Below, one piece after another: positions 678-32,756 of a stretch of 64,000 nucleotides of DNA. The position numbers and the translations under genes are program-made. The notes below the pieces were generated by a model. It did not search any database, was not told the DNA's origin, and was given only the letters and a program-made list of their open reading frames with translations. Source of the stretch: Escherichia phage TrudiRoth. Position 1 is the stretch's first letter; each line of letters starts with the position of its first letter. The stretch is from sequence record MZ501109; one strand, given 5' to 3'.

Positions 678-2552
678 TTATTTAGCGCGAATGTCTTGAT
701 GTTTCACTCGACCCATAACCTCATGTTGTTTACCTGGGTTAAACGGACGAGCACCTGGATTTCCAAGATATCCACAAACTCGACGAGTTACCTCAAGAGT
801 CTCAGGATCATGGTTGCCACAAATAGGGCATTTGAAACCATCCTCAGAAGCTATAGTTTCACCCAAGAACCCACATTCCCCACAAGAGTCTACTGGAGTA
901 TTAATACCGAAGTAATGAACTTTACTTGCAGCATAGTTAATAACCCATTCCAGTGCATCAGGGAATCGTTTCATATCCGGTAATTCCACATAGGAAATGC
1001 ACCCACCAGAAGCAATAGGAGTAAAGTTAGACTCATAATCAAACTTCACATTTGGAGCAACCTTACGTTCTACATCAAGGTGATGGGAATTAGTGTAATA
1101 TCCTTTAGCCAGAATATCTTCATGCTCTGGGAAATACTCACGGTCTAGGCGACAGAAGCGATCACATAGAGATTCAGATGGTGTAGCATACAGACTATAC
1201 CCTAATTGAGTCTCTTCCTTCTTCTGATCAGCACGATCACGCATGTATTGTAGCACACGTTGAACGAACTTGATACAAGACTCAGACATTGTATCTACAT
1301 CTTTACCAAACATGAGTTGCAACATTTCGTGGCAGCCAATATATCCTAGGGATACAGAAGCACGCTTGTAGAAATGATCAAACACATATTCATCTGGCCC
1401 CAGACGTAATCCAAAGGCTCCTGACGTATAGAGGATGGGCGCAGCTTTAGCTTGAATGTATTTTAAGCGATCAACCCTCCACTCCAATGCTTTTAACGCG
1501 GTATCCACACGCAGCTCAAGCAGATCGAAGAATAGATCAATATTTCCTTCCGCTTCGATAGCGATTCGAGGAAGGTTTACGGAAACAACGCCTAAGTTGT
1601 TACGACCAGAAGTTTCACCATCTTCCGCAGCAGCCAGGAATGAACGACAGCCCATAGAGACTTTGTAGTCCCCCGTAACTTCTACAACCTTATCATAACT
1701 GATGTAGTCAGGATACATACGTTCAGCAGTACATTTCATAGCTAACTTCTTGATATCATAGTTAACATCACCAGGTTTCATGTTTACGCCCTCACGCAAA
1801 ACAAATACCAGTTTAGGGAAGATAGCTGTACGTTTATTGATACCCAAACCATCCATACGTACTTCTAGTATTGCTTTCTGTACAAGACGTGCTTCCCAAG
1901 AAGTTCCTAGACCAAAACCAAAGGTAATAAACGGACTTTGACCATTAGAGTTGAACATCGTATTGATTTCATACTCCAGGCCCTGACAGGCATCGTAAAC
2001 TTCTTTCTCAGTCATTTCCGTAGCCATTACAGATGCTTTAGCTTCATCCTTAGTCCAACGCTTTGCAAACGCATGATTCTTATCATAAGACTTACGAACA
2101 TAAGGAGCCAATACTTCATCTAATCGGTCTACAGAAGTACCCCCATATTGATGTGAACTAACCTGAGTGATAATCTGAGCTGTGATAGCAGCCGCAGTAG
2201 TAATAGAGTTTGGTGTACTGATTTCAGCATTACCAACCTTCATACCATTCTTCAACATATCTTCCAAAGCAACCAGGCAACAGTTAGTCATACCTAACGC
2301 AGCGTAATCAGCATCATGGAAGTGAATATCACCAATCATGTGAGCATTTCGAATCTGGATTGGCATTTCTTCCAGAATCAGATATTTACTCAATTCCCCT
2401 GCAAGCATATCCCTTTGTGTAGGGAAACGTTCTGAGGGCTTATTGGCATTATTAAACAGCAGCTCTTCATCTGCTGAACCTTCGATAATTTCTTTGCAGT
2501 TTCGAATCAAGGACTGCATTCCTTTATACTTTAGTTCTTCATTGCGATTCAT
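678..2552 (-). CDS. nrdD: anaerobic ribonucleoside-triphosphate reductase (class III, glycyl-radical enzyme)
   Basis: 624 aa; C-terminal glycyl-radical motif RVCGYLG and Cys-rich zinc ribbon (CGECG...CPICG). Confidence 0.9.
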   Translation of the reverse strand: MNRNEELKYKGMQSLIRNCKEIIEGSADEELLFNNANKPSERFPTQRDMLAGELSKYLILEEMPIQIRNAHMIGDIHFHDADYAALGMTNCCLVALEDMLKNGMKVGNAEISTPNSITTAAAITAQIITQVSSHQYGGTSVDRLDEVLAPYVRKSYDKNHAFAKRWTKDEAKASVMATEMTEKEVYDACQGLEYEINTMFNSNGQSPFITFGFGLGTSWEARLVQKAILEVRMDGLGINKRTAIFPKLVFVLREGVNMKPGDVNYDIKKLAMKCTAERMYPDYISYDKVVEVTGDYKVSMGCRSFLAAAEDGETSGRNNLGVVSVNLPRIAIEAEGNIDLFFDLLELRVDTALKALEWRVDRLKYIQAKAAPILYTSGAFGLRLGPDEYVFDHFYKRASVSLGYIGCHEMLQLMFGKDVDTMSESCIKFVQRVLQYMRDRADQKKEETQLGYSLYATPSESLCDRFCRLDREYFPEHEDILAKGYYTNSHHLDVERKVAPNVKFDYESNFTPIASGGCISYVELPDMKRFPDALEWVINYAASKVHYFGINTPVDSCGECGFLGETIASEDGFKCPICGNHDPETLEVTRRVCGYLGNPGARPFNPGKQHEVMGRVKHQDIRAK

Positions 2553-2831: not shown

Positions 2832-2904
2832 ATATTTGTAAGTTGATAAACAAGATCTTTTTGTTGATCCTCTGTTAGCGAAGTACACTATAGGAGTGTT
2901 ATTT

Positions 2905-3657
2905 ATGGGAAAAGCACGTCAAAAAAGAGAGAACCGCAATGGTTCAAGAAAGCGTGGCAACAAGTATGAGAGTAACGTAATTCAAGCAGATTTCTCTGGT
3001 GATTACGCCAATCCAGTTGCTAAATCCCTAGTTGGTAAAAACCGTGAGCAAAAATCATATATCAATATGATCAAGAACAACACAGTGACTGTGGGTATTG
3101 GTGAACCAGGTACTGGTAAAACCTTTATTCCGTCCGTTCTTGCAGCTCAGGAACTCGTAGACATTCACTCAGATATTGAGCAAGTGATCCTCGTGCGTCC
3201 GAACGAACCTCTAGGTAAATCTCTTGGTATGCTCCCAGGTGATCTGGCAGAAAAGCTAGAGCCTTGGTTGGAACCAATAACCGATGGTATGAAATGGGCA
3301 ATCGGTGATCACGCCTACAAAGGATATGTCGAACGTCAGAAAATTAAATTCCTGGCTATCGAACATGCCCGTGGCCGAACTTTCAACAACTCCTATGTAA
3401 TTGTCGATGAAGCTCAGAATATCTCCGTTGAAGCAATGATCTGTCTCCTGACTCGTGTAGGACAAGATTGTCGTTTAATTATCTGTGGGGATATAGCTCA
3501 GAAAGACATCAAGGGTGATTCAGGTCTAGCACTTCTTATGGAAGTCTATGAGAAGTACGAAAACTCTCCTTTCTCTATGATCGAACTGATCGACAACGTT
3601 CGCTCACCAGAGTCTAAAGCATTCTACGATATCTTTAAGGATATGGGGAAGGTGTAA
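2905..3657 (+). CDS. phoH: PhoH-like ATPase
   Basis: Walker A GEPGTGKTF and Walker B VIVDEAQN; ORF opens at GTG 2896, ATG 2905 follows RBS TAGGAG. Confidence 0.85.
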   Translation: MGKARQKRENRNGSRKRGNKYESNVIQADFSGDYANPVAKSLVGKNREQKSYINMIKNNTVTVGIGEPGTGKTFIPSVLAAQELVDIHSDIEQVILVRPNEPLGKSLGMLPGDLAEKLEPWLEPITDGMKWAIGDHAYKGYVERQKIKFLAIEHARGRTFNNSYVIVDEAQNISVEAMICLLTRVGQDCRLIICGDIAQKDIKGDSGLALLMEVYEKYENSPFSMIELIDNVRSPESKAFYDIFKDMGKV

Positions 3658-3941: not shown

Positions 3942-4024
3942 ATCTGTAAAATTGTACTTGCAAAATGACCCAAAACAAAGTAGAATATTTCCTAAATCCT
4001 GATAACTACAAAAAGGAAAGCCAA

Positions 4025-6358
4025 ATGAGCCATCGTATCGAAAAAGTAATTAAACGTGACGGTACTGTTCAGGACTTTGCTCCTGAAAAACTCAATGATT
4101 GGGCTGCATGGGCATGTAAAGATACTGACGTAAGTTGGTCTGCCGTAGTTATGGCTGCCCTGAAAAATCTACCCAAAGGTGTTGTAGACTCCGATACACT
4201 CCAAGATGTGTTAATTAAAGCCGCTGAAGGTCTTATCAAAGACAACCCAGCATATGATACTGTAGCAAAGGAATTACGTCTTGCGCAGATGCGTAAACGC
4301 CTATATGATTCTTTTGAACCTCCTTCTCTGCGTTTCTTCCACGATCATATGGTTCGTGTCGGCGCTTGGGAAGACATGAGTGCATGGATTAGCGATGATC
4401 AGTTTGAAGCTCTGAACCAAGTTATTGATCATGATCGTGATCGTTTATTCACCAGTGGTGGACTGAAACAGTTCTTCGACAAGTATTCCCGTCGTAATAT
4501 TGCAACTGGTGAAATTTATGAAACCCCGCAGTTTGCCTACATGGGTATGGCAATGGCGATGTTATCTCAACCTAACTGGACAATTCTCGATGCAATCGAC
4601 CTCTACAACGCAATGTCACTCCATAAAATCAACGTGCCGACTCCACCTCTCGTGGGTCTTAGGAGCAGCGACCGCGGTTTTGCTTCTTGTTGTCTTGTTG
4701 ATAGTACTGATACCCTCGATTCAATCGACACAGCCGAGCACATCGTCTTCAAAATGGTCGCAGCCAGAGCGGGAATCGGGTATCATCTTGAAAGCCGATC
4801 AATTGCTGATCCGGTGCGAAATGGGGCATTCCCGCATTCCGGAAAACTGCCATATTATCGACACATTGACCGATCAGTAAAAGCTAACACTCAGCAAACC
4901 CGTGGTGGTTCTGCTACTGTGTCTTACCCATACTTCGATCCTGAAATCATTCAGTTGATGCAGGTTAAGCAGCAACGTGCTACAGACGAGAATAAAATCG
5001 ATAAGATGGATTACTCTCTGAGCTTTAACAACCTTCTGTTAAAACGTTACCTGAAAAATGAAGATATTACGCTAATGTCCTACTTCTACGCACCAGAAGT
5101 TCATGAAGCGTTTTATGGCGAAGATGAGGCTAAGTTTGAAGAAATCTACGTGGCAGCGGAGAAACGTGTGGCATCTCTTACAAAGATCGACCACGAAGGA
5201 AAAACAATTCCAGCAGCTCCTAGAATCTCTGCAAAAGAAATCCTAGATACTTGGTTACGTATCCGTATGGAAACAGGGCGTATGTATGCTCATCACATTG
5301 GTGAATCTAACCGTCATGGTAACTTCCTTGACCCGATTCGTATGACCAACCTTTGTGTTGAAATTACTCAGCCAACCCGTCCATTCCATCACATTACGGA
5401 GCTGTATAAGACCCAAGATCAGTTAGACGATATGCGTCCAGAGGACATTGGTGAAGTATCTCTGTGTAACTTAGGTGGTGTTGTACTAGGTCGCATGGAA
5501 TCTCTGGCTGAATGGGAGAAAACTTGCTACATCCTTCTGAAATTCGTTGATACAATCATCGAGATTCAGGATTATCCATTCCCAACCATGGAATACACGG
5601 CTAAGAAACGTCGTAACGTTGGTATTGGTCTGATGAACGCAGCAGGTGCAATGGCAGCAGAAGGTTTGGCTTACGAAGGTGTTGAAGCACGTAACTGGAT
5701 TCACCGTGAAGCTGAAAAGCTGTCCTACTTCCTGCACAAAGCCTCTGTACGTCTGGCCAAAGAACAGGGTGCATGTGACTGGTTTAATCGTACTAAGCCT
5801 TCACAAGGAACTCTGGTAATCGACACGTATAAGAAAACTGTTGATGAACTGGTAACTGTAGGTCTAGAAATGGATTGGGAATCTCTACGTGCAGATATCC
5901 TGAAATATGGTATGCGTAACTCCGTTCTGACTGCTCAGATGCCGGGTGAAAGTTCCTCTGTACTGCTAGGTGTTACTAACTCTATTGAACCGCCTCGTAA
6001 GATTGTATCTATCAAGGGTAGTGCAGTGAATAAAGTAATTGCAATTGCTCCAGGTGCAACTGATTGGGATACATTAATGAGCTATAAACTGGCTTATGAT
6101 GTAGATCGTATCGAGTGGATCAAATGGGTAGCAACCATGCAGAAATTCTTCAGTCAGTCTATAAGTACGAATATGTACTATGACTACACCAAGTTTGAGA
6201 ATGAAATTATTCCTGGCCCAGTAGTAGTTCGTGACTTCATGACTGCTGTTAAGTACGGTTGGAAAACTTTCTACTATGCAAACTTTAACACCGAGAATGG
6301 TGGTGGTGCAGGGGAAGAAACTGCTGCTGGATGCGCATCAGGTGGTTGTAACCTGTAA
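4025..6358 (+). CDS. nrdA: ribonucleotide reductase class Ia large subunit
   Basis: ATP-cone-like N-terminus (KRDGTVQDF), NLCVEI active-site loop, C-terminal Cys pair; ORF opens at 3965 but ATG 4025 has RBS AAGGAAA and matches the NrdA N-terminus. Confidence 0.9.
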   Translation: MSHRIEKVIKRDGTVQDFAPEKLNDWAAWACKDTDVSWSAVVMAALKNLPKGVVDSDTLQDVLIKAAEGLIKDNPAYDTVAKELRLAQMRKRLYDSFEPPSLRFFHDHMVRVGAWEDMSAWISDDQFEALNQVIDHDRDRLFTSGGLKQFFDKYSRRNIATGEIYETPQFAYMGMAMAMLSQPNWTILDAIDLYNAMSLHKINVPTPPLVGLRSSDRGFASCCLVDSTDTLDSIDTAEHIVFKMVAARAGIGYHLESRSIADPVRNGAFPHSGKLPYYRHIDRSVKANTQQTRGGSATVSYPYFDPEIIQLMQVKQQRATDENKIDKMDYSLSFNNLLLKRYLKNEDITLMSYFYAPEVHEAFYGEDEAKFEEIYVAAEKRVASLTKIDHEGKTIPAAPRISAKEILDTWLRIRMETGRMYAHHIGESNRHGNFLDPIRMTNLCVEITQPTRPFHHITELYKTQDQLDDMRPEDIGEVSLCNLGGVVLGRMESLAEWEKTCYILLKFVDTIIEIQDYPFPTMEYTAKKRRNVGIGLMNAAGAMAAEGLAYEGVEARNWIHREAEKLSYFLHKASVRLAKEQGACDWFNRTKPSQGTLVIDTYKKTVDELVTVGLEMDWESLRADILKYGMRNSVLTAQMPGESSSVLLGVTNSIEPPRKIVSIKGSAVNKVIAIAPGATDWDTLMSYKLAYDVDRIEWIKWVATMQKFFSQSISTNMYYDYTKFENEIIPGPVVVRDFMTAVKYGWKTFYYANFNTENGGGAGEETAAGCASGGCNL

Positions 6359-6459: not shown

Positions 6460-6975
6460 TTGATAACACAAGATGAATTAAAAAGGATTCTGGAGTATAA
6501 TCCAGATGAAGGAACATTTACTTGGTTAAATAACCAAGAAGTACACAATAAAGTAAGAGGACTACCTGCTGGTTGTTTAAAACCCCACTCAGTAGATCCT
6601 AACCGAAAAGACTTAGTAATACAAATCAATGGTAAGAAATATCCTGCACAAAATATTGCTTTCCTGTACATGACAGGAAACTTACCTAAAGTTATGGTTG
6701 ATCATATAGATGGAGATTCACTAAACTATAAGTGGACTAATCTAAGAGAAGCAGACTGGCAGTTAAATAGTCAAAATAGAAAAACCAGTAAAAACAATAT
6801 ATTGGGTACTAAGAATATTCGGAAGAAAGGGTCTGGATTTCAAGTTAGAAAATCCATTAACGGAAAAGAATACGTGAAAACTCTTCCAACTCTCGAAGAG
6901 GCGATAGAGTATCGAGATTCTTTAATCCTCTCTATAACCAAAGACCCAACACTACTTAGAAACACAGATAAATAG
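6460..6975 (+). CDS. HNH homing endonuclease with AP2-like DNA-binding domain
   Basis: TTG start after AAGGAG; motifs AFLYMTG, DHIDGD, NLREA and GSGFQVRKSINGKEY; free-standing between nrdA and nrdB; paralog of 28736, 39902 and 42058. Confidence 0.7.
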   Translation: MITQDELKRILEYNPDEGTFTWLNNQEVHNKVRGLPAGCLKPHSVDPNRKDLVIQINGKKYPAQNIAFLYMTGNLPKVMVDHIDGDSLNYKWTNLREADWQLNSQNRKTSKNNILGTKNIRKKGSGFQVRKSINGKEYVKTLPTLEEAIEYRDSLILSITKDPTLLRNTDK

Positions 6976-6983
6976 GAGAACTA

Positions 6984-8129
6984 ATGACAACTTTACTTAA
7001 CTTAAACTGGGATCATACCAATAAAGATCTATTTCTCGGTGATTCTCTTGGTATTGCAGATTATGTACGAGTAGCTCATCCAGAGCTAGAAAGGCTGGCG
7101 TTATTAGCTCGCTCTCAATTCTGGACTGAAACTGAAATCAGTCTGGAAGCTGATAAGAAACAATGGCCAAACCTTCCGCGTGATATTCAGGAAATTACTC
7201 TCCTGAACTTAGCATGGCAGACCCAAACAGATTCTTTCATTAGCCGTGCTCCTGAAGCAGCTATTATGCCGCTTGTAAGCCGTCCTGAATTGGAGGGTAT
7301 GCTCAAGCAGTGGAGCTACTTCGAAGATCTGCATAGCCGTGCATATAGTAACATTATTCGTAACGTTCTGACTGATCCAGCAGAATTTATTGATTCTGTA
7401 ACTAAAAACCAAGAAGCATTTGCACGTATCGCAGATTCTGTTGAACTGTTTGATGAATTGTATCTGTTAGGTCAGTATTTCCTTGCAGTACGTGATCATC
7501 GTGGTGATAATACTTATCCAGAAACTGAGTTCCCTGAAGTTAAACGTGAAACTCAGGCTAAGCTGTTAGATGCTTACTTTGCAATCTACGGTCTGGAAGC
7601 AATGCAGTTCTACGCATCCTTTGCATGTACCTTTGCTCTAGCAGAGAACGATATTCTGCAAGGTATTGCCAAGAACCTGCAACTAATCGCTAAAGATGAA
7701 GCTCTACATACTCAAATGTCTAAAGCTATCATCCAGATTATGTTCCAGCAGTTTGATAAAGATCTGGTAGACGAAGCATTAGCTAAAGCACCAGCACAAC
7801 TCCTAAAAACTCTGAAAACTGAGATTGAATGGGGCCACTTTATCTTTAAAGGCCGCAGTCTGATTGGTTTGAACGCAGAATTGCTTGAAGAATACCTTTA
7901 CTTTGTAGGACGTAACGCATTTATGCACATTGGTGTAGAATGGCCAAGCCACTTACCTGTAATTACTAAGAACCCTATTCCGTGGATTATGAACTGGCTG
8001 GATACTACTTCCTTACAGCCTGCCCCACAAGAAATCCAGATTGGTGCAGCATATCGTGTGGGTCAGGTAACTGAAACTTCTGCTGATACCCTGAAAGATC
8101 TGGGTAACGAATTTGAGGGCATGTTCTAA
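6984..8129 (+). CDS. nrdB: ribonucleotide reductase class Ia small subunit
   Basis: 381 aa, helical di-iron fold signature, adjacent to nrdA, RBS AGGAGA. Confidence 0.85.
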   Translation: MTTLLNLNWDHTNKDLFLGDSLGIADYVRVAHPELERLALLARSQFWTETEISLEADKKQWPNLPRDIQEITLLNLAWQTQTDSFISRAPEAAIMPLVSRPELEGMLKQWSYFEDLHSRAYSNIIRNVLTDPAEFIDSVTKNQEAFARIADSVELFDELYLLGQYFLAVRDHRGDNTYPETEFPEVKRETQAKLLDAYFAIYGLEAMQFYASFACTFALAENDILQGIAKNLQLIAKDEALHTQMSKAIIQIMFQQFDKDLVDEALAKAPAQLLKTLKTEIEWGHFIFKGRSLIGLNAELLEEYLYFVGRNAFMHIGVEWPSHLPVITKNPIPWIMNWLDTTSLQPAPQEIQIGAAYRVGQVTETSADTLKDLGNEFEGMF

Positions 8130-9965: not shown

Positions 9966-10544
9966 ATGACAGCCATAGTAGCATTTAAATATAAAGATAA
10001 AGTATACTTAGCCGGTGATCGTATGGGTTCTAATGGCTATACGAAACTGCTGGTTAAAAATCCGAAAGTATTCAAAATCTCTGATGATTTGTGCTTCGGA
10101 TACACTAGTTCCTTCTACATGGGACAATTACTAGAGCATAGCTTTACTGTACCACCACGTTTAGCAGATATTTCTGATGATAAATATTTATATACGGAAA
10201 TAGTACCTAAATTACGTGATATGTTTAACCAGAAAGATTTTGGCGAAAAGAAAAATGAAAAATATGCTGAACCTAATCTGGGACAATTTATTATGCTCTA
10301 CAAAGGAAGAATCTTTATTTTCCAATCTAATGCTTCTATTCTAGAAGTTGAATATGCCGGTGTAGGCTGTGGAGGAGAAGATGTACTTTCCAGTATTCGT
10401 ACAGGTTTAGCTATTGCGGATTGTCGAGCCACAGATTTAGATGTAGATGATATATTTGAAATCATTGATCTGGCTTTTACGCATTGTGCAGATTATATGT
10501 GTGGTGTATCTTCTCAACATGATATTTTAGTAATTGGAGAATAA
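9966..10544 (+). CDS. HslV/proteasome-like Ntn-hydrolase family protein (putative)
   Basis: N-terminus MTAIVAFKYKDKVYLAGDRMGSNG resembles HslV TTIV..AGD; AGVGCGG resembles the GSGG loop; RBS present. Confidence 0.5.
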   Translation: MTAIVAFKYKDKVYLAGDRMGSNGYTKLLVKNPKVFKISDDLCFGYTSSFYMGQLLEHSFTVPPRLADISDDKYLYTEIVPKLRDMFNQKDFGEKKNEKYAEPNLGQFIMLYKGRIFIFQSNASILEVEYAGVGCGGEDVLSSIRTGLAIADCRATDLDVDDIFEIIDLAFTHCADYMCGVSSQHDILVIGE

Positions 10545-28097: not shown

Positions 28098-28173
28098 GGG
28101 CGAATAGTGTCAGCGGGAGCACACCAGACTTGCAAGTCTGGTAGGGAGGGTTCGAGTCTCTCTTTGTCCACCA
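28098..28173 (+). tRNA. tRNA, isotype unresolved (Ala-UGC or Cys-GCA)
   Basis: Acceptor GGGCGAA/UUUGUCC, D-stem GUGU/ACAC, T-arm GAGGG-UUCGAGU-CUCUC, CCA; perfect anticodon stem CAGAC/GUCUG encloses only 6 nt (UUGCAA). Confidence 0.45.
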
Positions 28174-28735: not shown

Positions 28736-29251
28736 ATGCTAACACAACAAGAATTAAAATCCGTGTTGTTATATAAACCAGATACTGGAGAGTTTTTCTG
28801 GAAATATAGATCTGATTTAGATAGTCAATGGAATAGTAAATATGCTGGAACTAGGGCAGGATTTATTAATGAACTAGGCTATTGGAAGATAACTCTAGGA
28901 AATACTAGCTGGTTAGCACATCGTCTAGCATTCTTATACATGACTGGGGAAATACCAGATCTAATTGACCACAAGGATCAAGATAAGTCCAATACTAAAT
29001 GGGATAACTTACGAATAGCCACTGTATCACAGAATCAGGCTAATGCTAAATTAAGGGTAGATAATACCTCTGGGTACAAAAATGTAACTTGGCATAAGCA
29101 AAGAAATAAGTGGAAAGTAGAAGTACGTAAAGATGGCAAACTCCATTATGGTGGACTTTTTACAGAACTAGATAAAGCTGTAAATAAAGCTAATAATCTT
29201 AGACGTGAGTTATTCGGGGAATTTGCAGTATATGAAGAGTTTATGGGGTAG
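28736..29251 (+). CDS. HNH homing endonuclease with AP2-like domain
   Basis: Shares AHRLAFLYMTGE, DHKDQDK, NLR and GYKNV motifs with 6460, 39902 and 42058. Confidence 0.7.
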   Translation: MLTQQELKSVLLYKPDTGEFFWKYRSDLDSQWNSKYAGTRAGFINELGYWKITLGNTSWLAHRLAFLYMTGEIPDLIDHKDQDKSNTKWDNLRIATVSQNQANAKLRVDNTSGYKNVTWHKQRNKWKVEVRKDGKLHYGGLFTELDKAVNKANNLRRELFGEFAVYEEFMG

Positions 29252-30238: not shown

Positions 30239-30444
30239 TGGGAATTACTTTCACAGAAAAGATTATGGGCAATGGTGTTATGATCATTACCGCATGGGAT
30301 GGTAATCAGTGGTGTAGTGTTTCAGGTATTAAGCCTGAAGAACAAACACTAGAAAATATCTCAAAGATTAAGCGAAGAATGGCAGAACGTGCACGACTTC
30401 CAGGTGCGCCTAGAAATGGTAAACGTTCTGCAATTAAATGTTAA
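30238..30444 (+). CDS. hypothetical protein
   Basis: 68 aa, start-coupled. Confidence 0.45.
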   Translation: MGITFTEKIMGNGVMIITAWDGNQWCSVSGIKPEEQTLENISKIKRRMAERARLPGAPRNGKRSAIKC

Positions 30445-30445
30445 T

Positions 30446-30522
30446 GCTTCGGTAGCTTAGCGATCTAAAGCACTCGGCTGATAACCGAGAGATCGGGGGT
30501 TTAAATCCCTCCCGGAGTACCA
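30446..30522 (+). tRNA. tRNA-Ile (anticodon GAU) with UUUAAAU T-loop
   Basis: Acceptor GCUUCGG/CCGGAGU, D-stem GCUU/AAGC, anticodon stem CUCGG/CCGAG with loop CUGAUAA, T-arm GGGGG-UUUAAAU-CCCUC, CCA. Confidence 0.7.
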
Positions 30523-30558
30523 AATTTAGGAAGTAAGACTATGCGTCCAGGAAAGTTT

Positions 30559-30572
30559 AAAAAAAAAAAAAA
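30559..30572 (+). repeat. A14 homopolymer tract
   Basis: 14 consecutive A between tRNA-Ile and the third CAU tRNA, inside a 15-codon ORF (MRPGKFKKKKKLIGL). Confidence 0.9.
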
Positions 30573-30626
30573 GCTAATTGGTCTAAAGAGTATAAAGAAT
30601 ATTTACTTAGTCTAGTAAAACATAAT

Positions 30627-30702
30627 AGTTAGTTGGCAGAGTGGTTATGCACCTCCTTCATACGGAGCGACTACAGTGGTTCAAATCCACTACTAACTAC
30701 CA
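30627..30702 (+). tRNA. tRNA-Met/Ile2 (anticodon CAU)
   Basis: Acceptor AGUUAGU/ACUAACU, anticodon loop UUCAUAC, T-arm AGUGG-UUCAAAU-CCACU, CCA. Confidence 0.7.
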
Positions 30703-30740
30703 TAAAAAAGAGCTAGAGATAGCTAAATATAGGAGCAAGT

Positions 30741-30935
30741 GTGTTAACTGTTAAAATAATGTCTGCAAATGGTGGTGAAGAAATTCATGATGGTAATAGC
30801 GTAGGATTTAATCCTAAAAATAAGAGTATTCATGTCTCGGGATTAGATCAAGCCATATTCCTAAAAGAGGATGAAGTCGCCTACGTTATGAATCAGAACG
30901 GTAAAACAGTTTCTGTTTACTACGGTAAGCTGTAA
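30741..30935 (+). CDS. hypothetical protein
   Basis: 64 aa, GTG start after AGGAG. Confidence 0.4.
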   Translation: MLTVKIMSANGGEEIHDGNSVGFNPKNKSIHVSGLDQAIFLKEDEVAYVMNQNGKTVSVYYGKL

Positions 30936-31302
30936 AGAACAGAGGATCAGGTCATTGTACCAGATCCTGCTGAGAAGAGAGTCCACATTCTATAAATGGC
31001 CGGGCGTGACAGCAGGAAGTAGACTGCAACTCCATGCTATCCAGGAGTATAAATGTAGAAGCTAAGACTTTAGATAGCCATTGTCTTAGCGTGAGCAATC
31101 ACGTAGTTGCAACAGACCTGGAAGATCGCAACGTTAAAATCAAAGCTCCTGTGCTTATTAAACTGAATGGGACTATCAATCCACAAGCCGGACTACGAGC
31201 GATTATCGGGTATTCACTTAATAAGCAAGCCTGCCTTCCAGTTTTTATCTTGCTTCTGGGTTAACAAAAAGCTGAGCCAAATTCTAACATCAGGGAGATC
31301 TA

Positions 31303-31671
31303 ATGAAAGCATATCAAAGTCTTAAGTCTGGCGTAATTAACATTGTTCATAACAATCAGATCATTCAACTATATTCTAAAGATGGTGAACTTAAACAGAA
31401 AGTTCTAGTCGAAGATCTAGAAGGTATCACACCTCACTTTGACCCTGAGGCCTTTCGCATTGTAGATGTGGAAGTGGTTCCTCAAGTCGAGGGTGGTCAG
31501 CACCTAAATGTCAATGTGTTAAGCCGTGATCAGCTTTTGGATGCACAGAAACATCCTGAAAAATATCCTCAGTTGACCATCCGTGTCTCTGGCTATGCTG
31601 TTCGATTTAACGCATTGACGCGTGAACAACAGAACGACGTTATTAGTCGTACATTTACTCAGGCGATATAA
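31303..31671 (+). CDS. grcA: autonomous glycyl-radical cofactor GrcA/YfiD-like
   Basis: [12 protein letters not shown]...[37 protein letters not shown] closely matches the C-terminal glycyl-radical domain of GrcA/PFL; RVSGY radical site. Confidence 0.8.
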
Positions 31672-31752
31672 TGGGGTTTGGATACGATTTCTCCCAGCTA
31701 CGCAAGGTAGTCGAGCAAACTCCATTTATCTCCCAAGTTTTAGGAGAAATGT

Positions 31753-32052
31753 GTGGATCGAGCATTAAGACGCCATCACCGGCAACGTGTGAAAAACAAT
31801 CGCAAAAAGTATTGGACAGTCTTCCCACATGAAGAAAGTCCTAAGCGGTTAGGCATTATCACTACCACTCCTTGCATCTGTTCTTGTTGGATGTGTGGGA
31901 ATCCTCGCAAATACTATAAGAATAGTAAAGCAGGCATGAAAATCTCGGAGATTAAAAAGATGGATGCAATGATTATGGGCATCACCTTTACAGGTGGTAT
32001 CTCTGATGAATTCGACGGTTTTGTAACTCAGGATATTGTCGAAATTATCTAA
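31753..32052 (+). CDS. hypothetical protein
   Basis: 99 aa, GTG start; terminator follows. Confidence 0.35.
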   Translation: MDRALRRHHRQRVKNNRKKYWTVFPHEESPKRLGIITTTPCICSCWMCGNPRKYYKNSKAGMKISEIKKMDAMIMGITFTGGISDEFDGFVTQDIVEII

Positions 32053-32062
32053 TTAATAATAA

Positions 32063-32098
32063 ACCCCAGCTATTGAATAGGTAGTCTGGGGTTTTCTT
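32063..32098 (+). terminator. rho-independent terminator
   Basis: Stem ACCCCAG/CUGGGGU followed by UUUUCUU. Confidence 0.65.
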
Positions 32099-32116
32099 GT
32101 ATGTAGGATTTTCGAA

Positions 32117-32302
32117 ATGAAAATTTTTAAAGTGAACTATAGCGGCCTGTGGTTAGGTGGTACAGCTATTGTCGTTGCAGAAACTGCAGAAGAAGCAATC
32201 GAACTGACTAGAAACCATAGAAGTTCTATAGAATTCGAGGATGTGACAGTAGAAGAACTCCCGAGCAGTGGGGTAGTATACAACAACAACGGAGATTACT
32301 GA
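32117..32302 (+). CDS. hypothetical protein
   Basis: 61-aa ORF. Confidence 0.4.
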   Translation: MKIFKVNYSGLWLGGTAIVVAETAEEAIELTRNHRSSIEFEDVTVEELPSSGVVYNNNGDY

Positions 32303-32360
32303 TGTTATATTTTGAAGTTCGCCCACATTAAGTTAATTTAAAAGACTTAATGGAGGTAAT

Positions 32361-32756
32361 ATGAGCCGTACATATCGTAAACAATCTGGTGATCGTCACT
32401 GGCGTGATGCACATCGTTCTACTTATAATTTTCATAGCACTAATATCCGTATTCCGTATACCTACACGGATAGGGATGGTAAGCAGTGGAAGTATTATCA
32501 AGTTCGATCCAATGAAGCATGGGCTAAAACTTGGGATGAAATTGAGAAGGAGATTCAGGAAAATATCATCCGTAACGAGAAGAAAGATGGGCACTGGTGG
32601 GATTCTGTTAGTAGGAATGTTAAGTGGCATTCTAACAAAATGGTTCGTCAGGGAAACCGTCGCGAACTTCATCGTGTGATGAAAGATCCAGAAAATTACG
32701 ACTATAATCGCGATCATGATCTGCGTAAGCGTGGGTTATGGTGGTGCTACGACTAA
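32361..32756 (+). CDS. hypothetical protein
   Basis: 131 aa, Trp/His/Arg-rich, RBS GGAGG. Confidence 0.5.
   Translation: MSRTYRKQSGDRHWRDAHRSTYNFHSTNIRIPYTYTDRDGKQWKYYQVRSNEAWAKTWDEIEKEIQENIIRNEKKDGHWWDSVSRNVKWHSNKMVRQGNRRELHRVMKDPENYDYNRDHDLRKRGLWWCYD

Follow-up and report, generated by a model that had tools for sequence, protein, structure and literature searches.

The DNA analysed here, a stretch of 64,000 nt that is referred to as the window throughout, carries a small grcA-like gene at the end of its tRNA-gene region. A second glycyl-radical protein is encoded 29 kb away on the opposite strand, by nrdD. The features on which the analysis draws are the following:

31303..31671, plus strand: grcA-like gene (T4 vs.6/Y06I family), 122 aa plus stop codon, ATG start, from the ORF listing
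31292..31297, plus strand: Shine-Dalgarno-like AGGGAG, 5 nt 5' of the ATG, read from the sequence
31303..31467, plus strand: N-terminal region, residues 1-55, specific to the phage T5/T4 type (AF2, hhalign, dN/dS 0.11)
31486..31668, plus strand: glycyl-radical domain of PFL type, residues 62-122 (identity to GrcA/PflB/TdcE, Foldseek, dN/dS 0.018)
31582..31596, plus strand: codons of R94-V95-S96-G97-Y98, with the radical glycine G97 encoded by GGC at 31591-31593 (alignments)
678..2552, minus strand: nrdD, class III anaerobic ribonucleotide reductase (Pfam NRDD, E 1e-172)

The interval 31303..31671 on the plus strand is a genuine gene with a good ribosome-binding site, and a ribosome-binding site is annotated at the equivalent place in phage Seafire. 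The reading frame is stop-bounded and encodes a small stand-alone protein of 14 kDa, in which Gly_radical is the sole Pfam domain. The gene is oriented like the tRNAs and like a run of small function-unknown ORFs; the ORFs that neighbour it match function-unknown families only, and phage early-type genes (dNMP kinase, Clp protease) are found downstream. An Rfam scan of 30400-32400 returned two tRNAs only, and neither a riboswitch nor a leader was detected in the 367-nt gap 5' of the gene; in a promoter/terminator scan, the number of sites did not exceed that in shuffled sequence. Transcription from the lone promoter-like site close upstream (31261-31290) would start within the ribosome-binding site of the grcA-like gene. 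The gene probably shares a transcript with those around it.

The spacer between tRNA-Met and the grcA-like gene (30703-31302) measures ~600 nt as opposed to 183 nt in Seafire (28955-29139 of locus L008), which indicates an indel hotspot adjoining the gene. This spacer contains a 64-aa ORF (30741-30935; phrog_3909) as well as the 367-nt stretch, for which no convincing ORF, Rfam match or promoter was obtained. Directly 3' of the gene, the ORF 31753..32052 (plus strand) encodes a basic, Cys-rich protein of 99 aa with the Cys cluster TPCICSCWMCGNPRKYY, formally CX3CX2C; it matches phrog_4499 (function unknown) only and belongs to no Pfam family.

A first-pass annotation, made from the sequence alone, had described the 122-aa product as a GrcA/YfiD-like autonomous glycyl-radical protein and had named an HMM search as a check. 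The identification is borne out by Pfam, NCBIfam and PDB sequence matches, and the GrcA-type motif quoted at the time is indeed found in the protein. The Pfam family Gly_radical (PF01228) matches residues 62-103 with 66.3 bits (E 4e-18), well over the gathering cut-off of 22.2. The best NCBIfam families are GrcA (TIGR04365), GrcA3, GrcA2 and PFL. The equivalog cut-off of TIGR04365 (170 bits) is not reached, owing to the lack of a match in the N-terminal half (118.3 bits, residues 54-121 only); the GrcA3 model matches residues 63-122 with 116 bits, under its cut-off of 158 bits. In a phmmer search, the best PDB sequence matches were E. coli YfiD/GrcA (6owr, E 2e-29) and PFL residues 698-758 (E 1.6e-26), the latter in register with phage residues 61-121; 6owr is an NMR structure.

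End-to-end matches come from phage families: residues 1-122 align with profile positions 1-121 of 121 of phrog_1209 (E 7e-47), and BLASTP against T2 vs.6 yields 52% identity over the full length (E 5e-39), the MKAYQ start included. The T4 RefSeq record annotates vs.6 as 'autonomous glycyl radical cofactor GrcA'. T4 vs.6 is presumably Y06I; we equate the two since vs.6 is the one gene between regB and denV on the T4 map that bears the GrcA annotation, and in view of the UniProt naming. Judged from these matches, the grcA-like gene is the T5-lineage member of the characterised T4 vs.6/Y06I spare-part family.

This family is widespread. At the DNA level, many T5-like Epseptimavirus genomes (Demerecviridae, Markadamsvirinae) share 97-99% identity with the region. 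The 64,000-nt stretch, itself from a T5-like Epseptimavirus, is about 99-100% identical to phages beppo, Stitch and Seafire, and the protein is 100% identical in Salmonella phages beppo, Stitch and Sw2 and in E. coli phage Ace. It is annotated as 'glycyl radical cofactor' in beppo and as 'putative autonomous glycyl radical cofactor GrcA' in T5_ev219; other records mislabel it as 'pyruvate formate-lyase', 'ribonucleotide reductase subunit' or 'acetyltransferase-related'. By tblastn, grcA-like homologues were detected in 1582 of 50,697 phage records. About 440 of these are T5-like records, at a protein identity of at least 80%; the remaining homologues belong mostly to T4-like phages, in which vs.6 is the corresponding gene, and also to jumbo phages and to Aeromonas and Vibrio phages. 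The grcA-like gene is already known: it is ordinary in enterobacterial phages and annotated in several public records. Its novelty was overrated in the first-pass annotation, given the breadth of the T4 vs.6/Y06I family and the labels that T5-like genomes already bear; the finding as such matters little, since the T4 representative of the family was characterised in 2001.

The radical domain is the best conserved part of the protein. Among the E. coli proteins, TdcE shares 85% of the C-terminal 60 aa, and GrcA and PflB share 80% each. The motif RVSGY is identical to that around G734 of PFL and G102 of GrcA, and its columns, with the radical glycine G97, are invariant in alignments of 5 and of 34 sequences. 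The strand that comes before the cleavage site of PFL is duplicated in the phage domain as well. At the DNA level, the same segment shows 71-74% identity to E. coli grcA, pflB and tdcE, with third codon positions at 47-52%. This distance from every E. coli copy implies that the T5-lineage gene is old; its protein sequence has meanwhile stayed nearly fixed. Among 28 distinct T5-lineage alleles, dN/dS is 0.07 overall; the C-terminal half has a value of 0.018 and the N-terminal half one of 0.11. The T5-lineage gene is under strong purifying selection, and the low values in both halves indicate that both are functional.

The N-terminal half sets the phage protein apart. In hhalign comparisons with bacterial GrcAs, residues 49-122 align only, and the N-terminal ~48 residues have no detectable similarity; the N-terminal half can be aligned with that of T2 vs.6. 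The AF2 model of the 122-aa protein (mean pLDDT 75) comprises N-terminal strands at residues 2-6, 12-16, 19-26, 29-36 and 51-55, which form a predicted small beta-meander (residues 1-55, pLDDT ~80), followed by a low-confidence linker (residues 60-71) and a radical domain with G97 predicted at the tip of a hairpin. Searched against the PDB with Foldseek, the model finds 6owr (YfiD) and 2pfl (PFL) as best matches, via its C-terminal 60 residues only, and the predicted beta-meander finds no structural relative there. The N-terminus of YfiD is disordered, yet required for activation and complex formation (PMC8683613); the part on which activation depends is residues 1-60. By analogy, the phage N-terminal region may play the role of the YfiD N-terminus; as the latter is disordered and the phage region is modelled by AF2 as a folded beta-meander, the two roles may also differ. 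With its distinct N-terminal half, the T5-lineage protein represents an ancient branch that evolves independently, and it may serve as a natural variant for dissecting the N-terminus of spare parts.

Four kinds of known proteins provide points of comparison: (i) T4 Y06I (vs.6) resembles the T5-lineage protein in size (122 aa here, 120 aa in T2), in its membership of phrog_1209, in the RVSGY loop and in the PFL-like tail, whereas the N-terminal 55 residues have strongly diverged; (ii) E. coli GrcA/YfiD (6owr) shares the fold of the glycyl-radical domain and the context of the radical glycine, with 74% identity over residues 51-122, but differs in the N-terminal ~48 residues, and the phage protein is phage-encoded and stays under the TIGR04365 cut-off; (iii) the C-terminal domains of PflB and TdcE (1h16, 2pfl) agree with the phage protein over the final 60 aa, the phage tail being almost exactly that of TdcE, which is slightly nearer than GrcA or PflB, whereas the phage protein stands alone, with neither the ten-stranded barrel nor the catalytic Cys418/Cys419; (iv) the short forms GrcA2 and GrcA3 (NF008341, NF038360; about 78-80 aa) have the radical domain in common with the phage protein but not its extra N-terminal region of ~60 residues.

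The T-even and T5 lineages also differ in their relation to the host gene. The final 180 nt of T2 vs.6 (positions 4181-4360 of locus L003) are 97.2% identical in DNA and 100% identical in protein to E. coli K-12 grcA (locus L004), and the 5' half of T2 vs.6 is phage-specific; the high DNA identity looks like the result of a recent exchange between T-even phages and host, by recombination or gene conversion. While the 3' half of T-even vs.6 is thus 97% identical to host grcA, the T5-lineage gene is equally far from grcA, pflB and tdcE and bears no trace of such an exchange.

It is likely that the protein is an autonomous glycyl-radical spare part for host PflB, and probably for TdcE too, as the T5-lineage member of the vs.6/Y06I family. 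Repair of host PFL was one of two roles that had been suggested from the sequence, and it is the one supported here, by the 80-85% identity of the C-terminal 60 aa to PflB/TdcE and by the precedent of the homologous T4 Y06I. According to the account of Wagner et al. 2001 given in PMC8683613, YfiD and T4 Y06I are the sole biochemically validated spare parts for PFL, and they restore O2-cleaved PFL once PFL-AE has installed the radical. Transferred from E. coli YfiD and T4 Y06I, the mechanism in the T5 lineage could be as follows: In the RVSGY loop, which by its sequence reads as a PflA substrate motif, G97 would lose a hydrogen atom to the radical-SAM activase PflA of the host. The C-terminal domain (~residues 62-122), presumably a mimic of PFL residues 698-759, would then dock into PFL that has been stripped of its own radical domain by O2-dependent cleavage at G734, and the conversion of pyruvate and CoA to acetyl-CoA and formate would be regained. 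The divergent N-terminal 55 residues probably aid activation and complex formation, in the manner of the YfiD N-terminus. The phage may benefit in that fermentative energy metabolism and formate output of the host persist in microaerobic settings, such as the gut.

Putative targets are present throughout the host species: all 5426 of 5426 complete E. coli genomes were matched, at a median of three places per genome. Of these places, pflB and tdcE are listed, and the third is presumably grcA. In the host, pflA adjoins pflB.

Instead of repairing PFL, the protein might act as a decoy or modulator that soaks up PflA or occupies PFL, redirecting pyruvate flux or damping host fermentation. Bacterial GrcA also engages full-length inactive PFL in vivo, as PMC12338860 relates of Kammel and Sawers 2022, and the N-terminal half of the phage protein is unlike that of bacterial GrcA and predicted to be folded. 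We nevertheless regard a decoy as improbable: the radical glycine and all flanking residues for catalysis-competent docking are invariant, the extreme purifying selection on the C-terminal half is what would be expected of a working cofactor, and in the description of T4 Y06I in PMC8683613, PFL activity is restored, not inhibited. Still less probable is a recently captured host fragment, or 'moron', that has no role in phage fitness. The near-identity of the T2 vs.6 3' end to grcA demonstrates that exchange between host and phage occurs, and the syntenic 49 kb of a related Sugarlandvirus lack grcA. The T5-lineage gene, however, is too distant from any E. coli copy to be recent, it is carried at high protein identity by ~440 T5-like records, and it combines a dN/dS of 0.07 with a ribosome-binding site of its own.

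The other role suggested from the sequence was repair of the class III ribonucleotide reductase of the phage itself, which brings in the second glycyl-radical protein of the window. The co-occurrence noted at the time is real: the reading frame at 678..2552 is a genuine nrdD. Its minus-strand orientation and its distance of 29 kb went unmentioned in the first-pass annotation. Formate is the reductant of E. coli-type NrdD. The phage NrdD is 53% identical to that of E. coli, and its residues C91, M300, C302 and G594 are the counterparts of C175, M382, C384 and G681. The Cys175/Met382 pair is reportedly assigned, in work by Wei and co-workers from 2014, to the formate-dependent NrdD subtype, and by these residues the phage NrdD is predicted to be of the formate-using E. 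coli type.

The statement that no nrdG activase is present in the window holds as well; tblastn with E. coli NrdG gave noise only. A search of the rest of the genome had been proposed and was carried out on Salmonella phage Seafire, which as a near-identical complete genome (99.9% identity over the nrdD region, positions 1-2600 of the window) can stand for it: nothing is annotated as nrdG, and the best tblastn match of E. coli NrdG in the whole genome has E 0.54 over 22 aa. T4, in contrast to the T5-like phage, has an nrdG of its own. A scan for the CX3CX2C motif as a mark of nrdG found three open frames only, among them the 99-aa ORF 31753..32052; as an nrdG-like activase this phrog_4499 member was rejected, since it falls far short of a radical-SAM activase in size, resembles one too little and has no Pfam match. 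The radical loops of the phage proteins match those of the host, with VTRRVCGYLG in the phage NrdD and a spare-part loop as in PflB and GrcA. Given these loops and the absence of a phage nrdG, the GrcA-like protein and NrdD presumably depend on host PflA and NrdG.

In several phages other than the T5-like ones, grcA-like genes lie close to nrdD. Yersinia jumbo phage fHe-Yen9-04 (LT960551, 70588-74852) has, on one strand, nrdD, one ORF, the grcA-like gene, two ORFs and nrdG; Klebsiella jumbo phage RaK2 (JQ513383, 319528-322571) has nrdD, a vs.6-like gene, an nrdA.1-like gene and nrdG; and in Aeromonas phage BUCT695 (NC_070977, 34470-36947; Grimontviridae, 86 kb) grcA directly follows nrdD. Among 80 loci from IMG/VR, nrdD and nrdG both lie within 1.2 kb of the grcA-like gene in four, which belong to three jumbo phages and one 235-kb contig. 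In fHe-Yen9-04, RaK2 and BUCT695 and in a 357-kb and a 235-kb IMG/VR contig, the grcA-like gene shares its strand with nrdD and adjoins it or stands between nrdD and nrdG; T5-like and typical T4-like genomes do not have this arrangement. The T5-like and typical T4-like loci among the 80 have no nrdD plus nrdG within this distance. Across phage records, NrdD is the more frequent of the two (2907 vs 1582 for grcA): all grcA-carrying lineages examined also have nrdD, but the converse fails. Klebsiella phage DevonBitter, a T5-like Sugarlandvirus of the same family, has nrdD and no grcA in the syntenic 49 kb, so that the grcA-like gene is dispensable for NrdD function. A published discussion of a phage GrcA-NrdD link or of this clustering was not found in the literature searched.

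That the protein replaces the oxygen-cleaved glycyl-radical domain of the phage's own NrdD is hardly credible, even though the two genes share one genome, the grcA-like gene adjoins nrdD or stands between nrdD and nrdG in RaK2, fHe-Yen9-04, the 235-kb contig and BUCT695, and spare parts for other glycyl-radical enzymes have been speculated upon (PMC8683613): a BLASTP comparison with the phage NrdD yields E = 17 and puts the radical glycine out of register; the NrdD loop is preceded by a four-Cys cluster (CGECGF...CPICG), and the spare part has neither; all phage homologues in the 34-sequence alignment, the nrdD-adjacent ones included, keep the PFL-type sequence, here at 80-85% identity to PflB/TdcE despite saturated silent sites; and the motif fits a substrate of PflA, not of NrdG, the nrdG gene being absent from the T5-like phages.

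With host PFL as the preferred target, a connection to NrdD could still exist by way of formate. Formate is a product of PFL and the reductant that E. coli-type NrdD uses up, which makes an indirect coupling the most economical reading of the association between the two genes. It is possible, although on balance we lean against it, that phage GrcA is an indirect partner of NrdD in that it keeps PFL/TdcE alive under oxygen and thereby secures formate. If so, grcA, nrdD and, where present, nrdG would make up an 'anaerobic dNTP-supply module'. The recurrence of nrdD, grcA and nrdG together suggests that, during infection in low-oxygen habitats, e.g. the gut, PFL-derived formate may feed anaerobic dNTP synthesis.

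Apart from the grcA-like gene and nrdD, a few further features of the window deserve mention. The tRNA at 28098-28173 (plus strand) scores 40 bits against the Rfam tRNA model; G3:U70 gives it alanine identity, and its anticodon is TGC. Its anticodon arm is the perfect palindrome CCAGACTTGCAAGTCTGG, which can be drawn with an 8-nt loop or with a 6-bp stem and a 6-nt loop; ARAGORN calls it tRNA-??? and assigns it the four-base anticodon tgca. The tRNA-Ala of beppo and Seafire has a normal 7-nt loop (CTTGCAC). The tRNA of the window could be degenerate or quadruplet-reading.

Between the genes of the aerobic ribonucleotide reductase, nrdA (3965-6358) and nrdB (6984-8129), an HNH homing-endonuclease ORF is inserted (6460-6975, plus strand; Pfam HNH_3). 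The same insertion is found in Seafire; in DevonBitter, nrdA adjoins nrdB, and the annotation places no gene in between. The nucleotide-metabolism block further comprises an HslV/proteasome-like peptidase (9966-10544, plus strand; Pfam Proteasome, E 2e-9) and a PhoH-like ATPase (2896-3657, plus strand), both of which are typical of T5-like phages.
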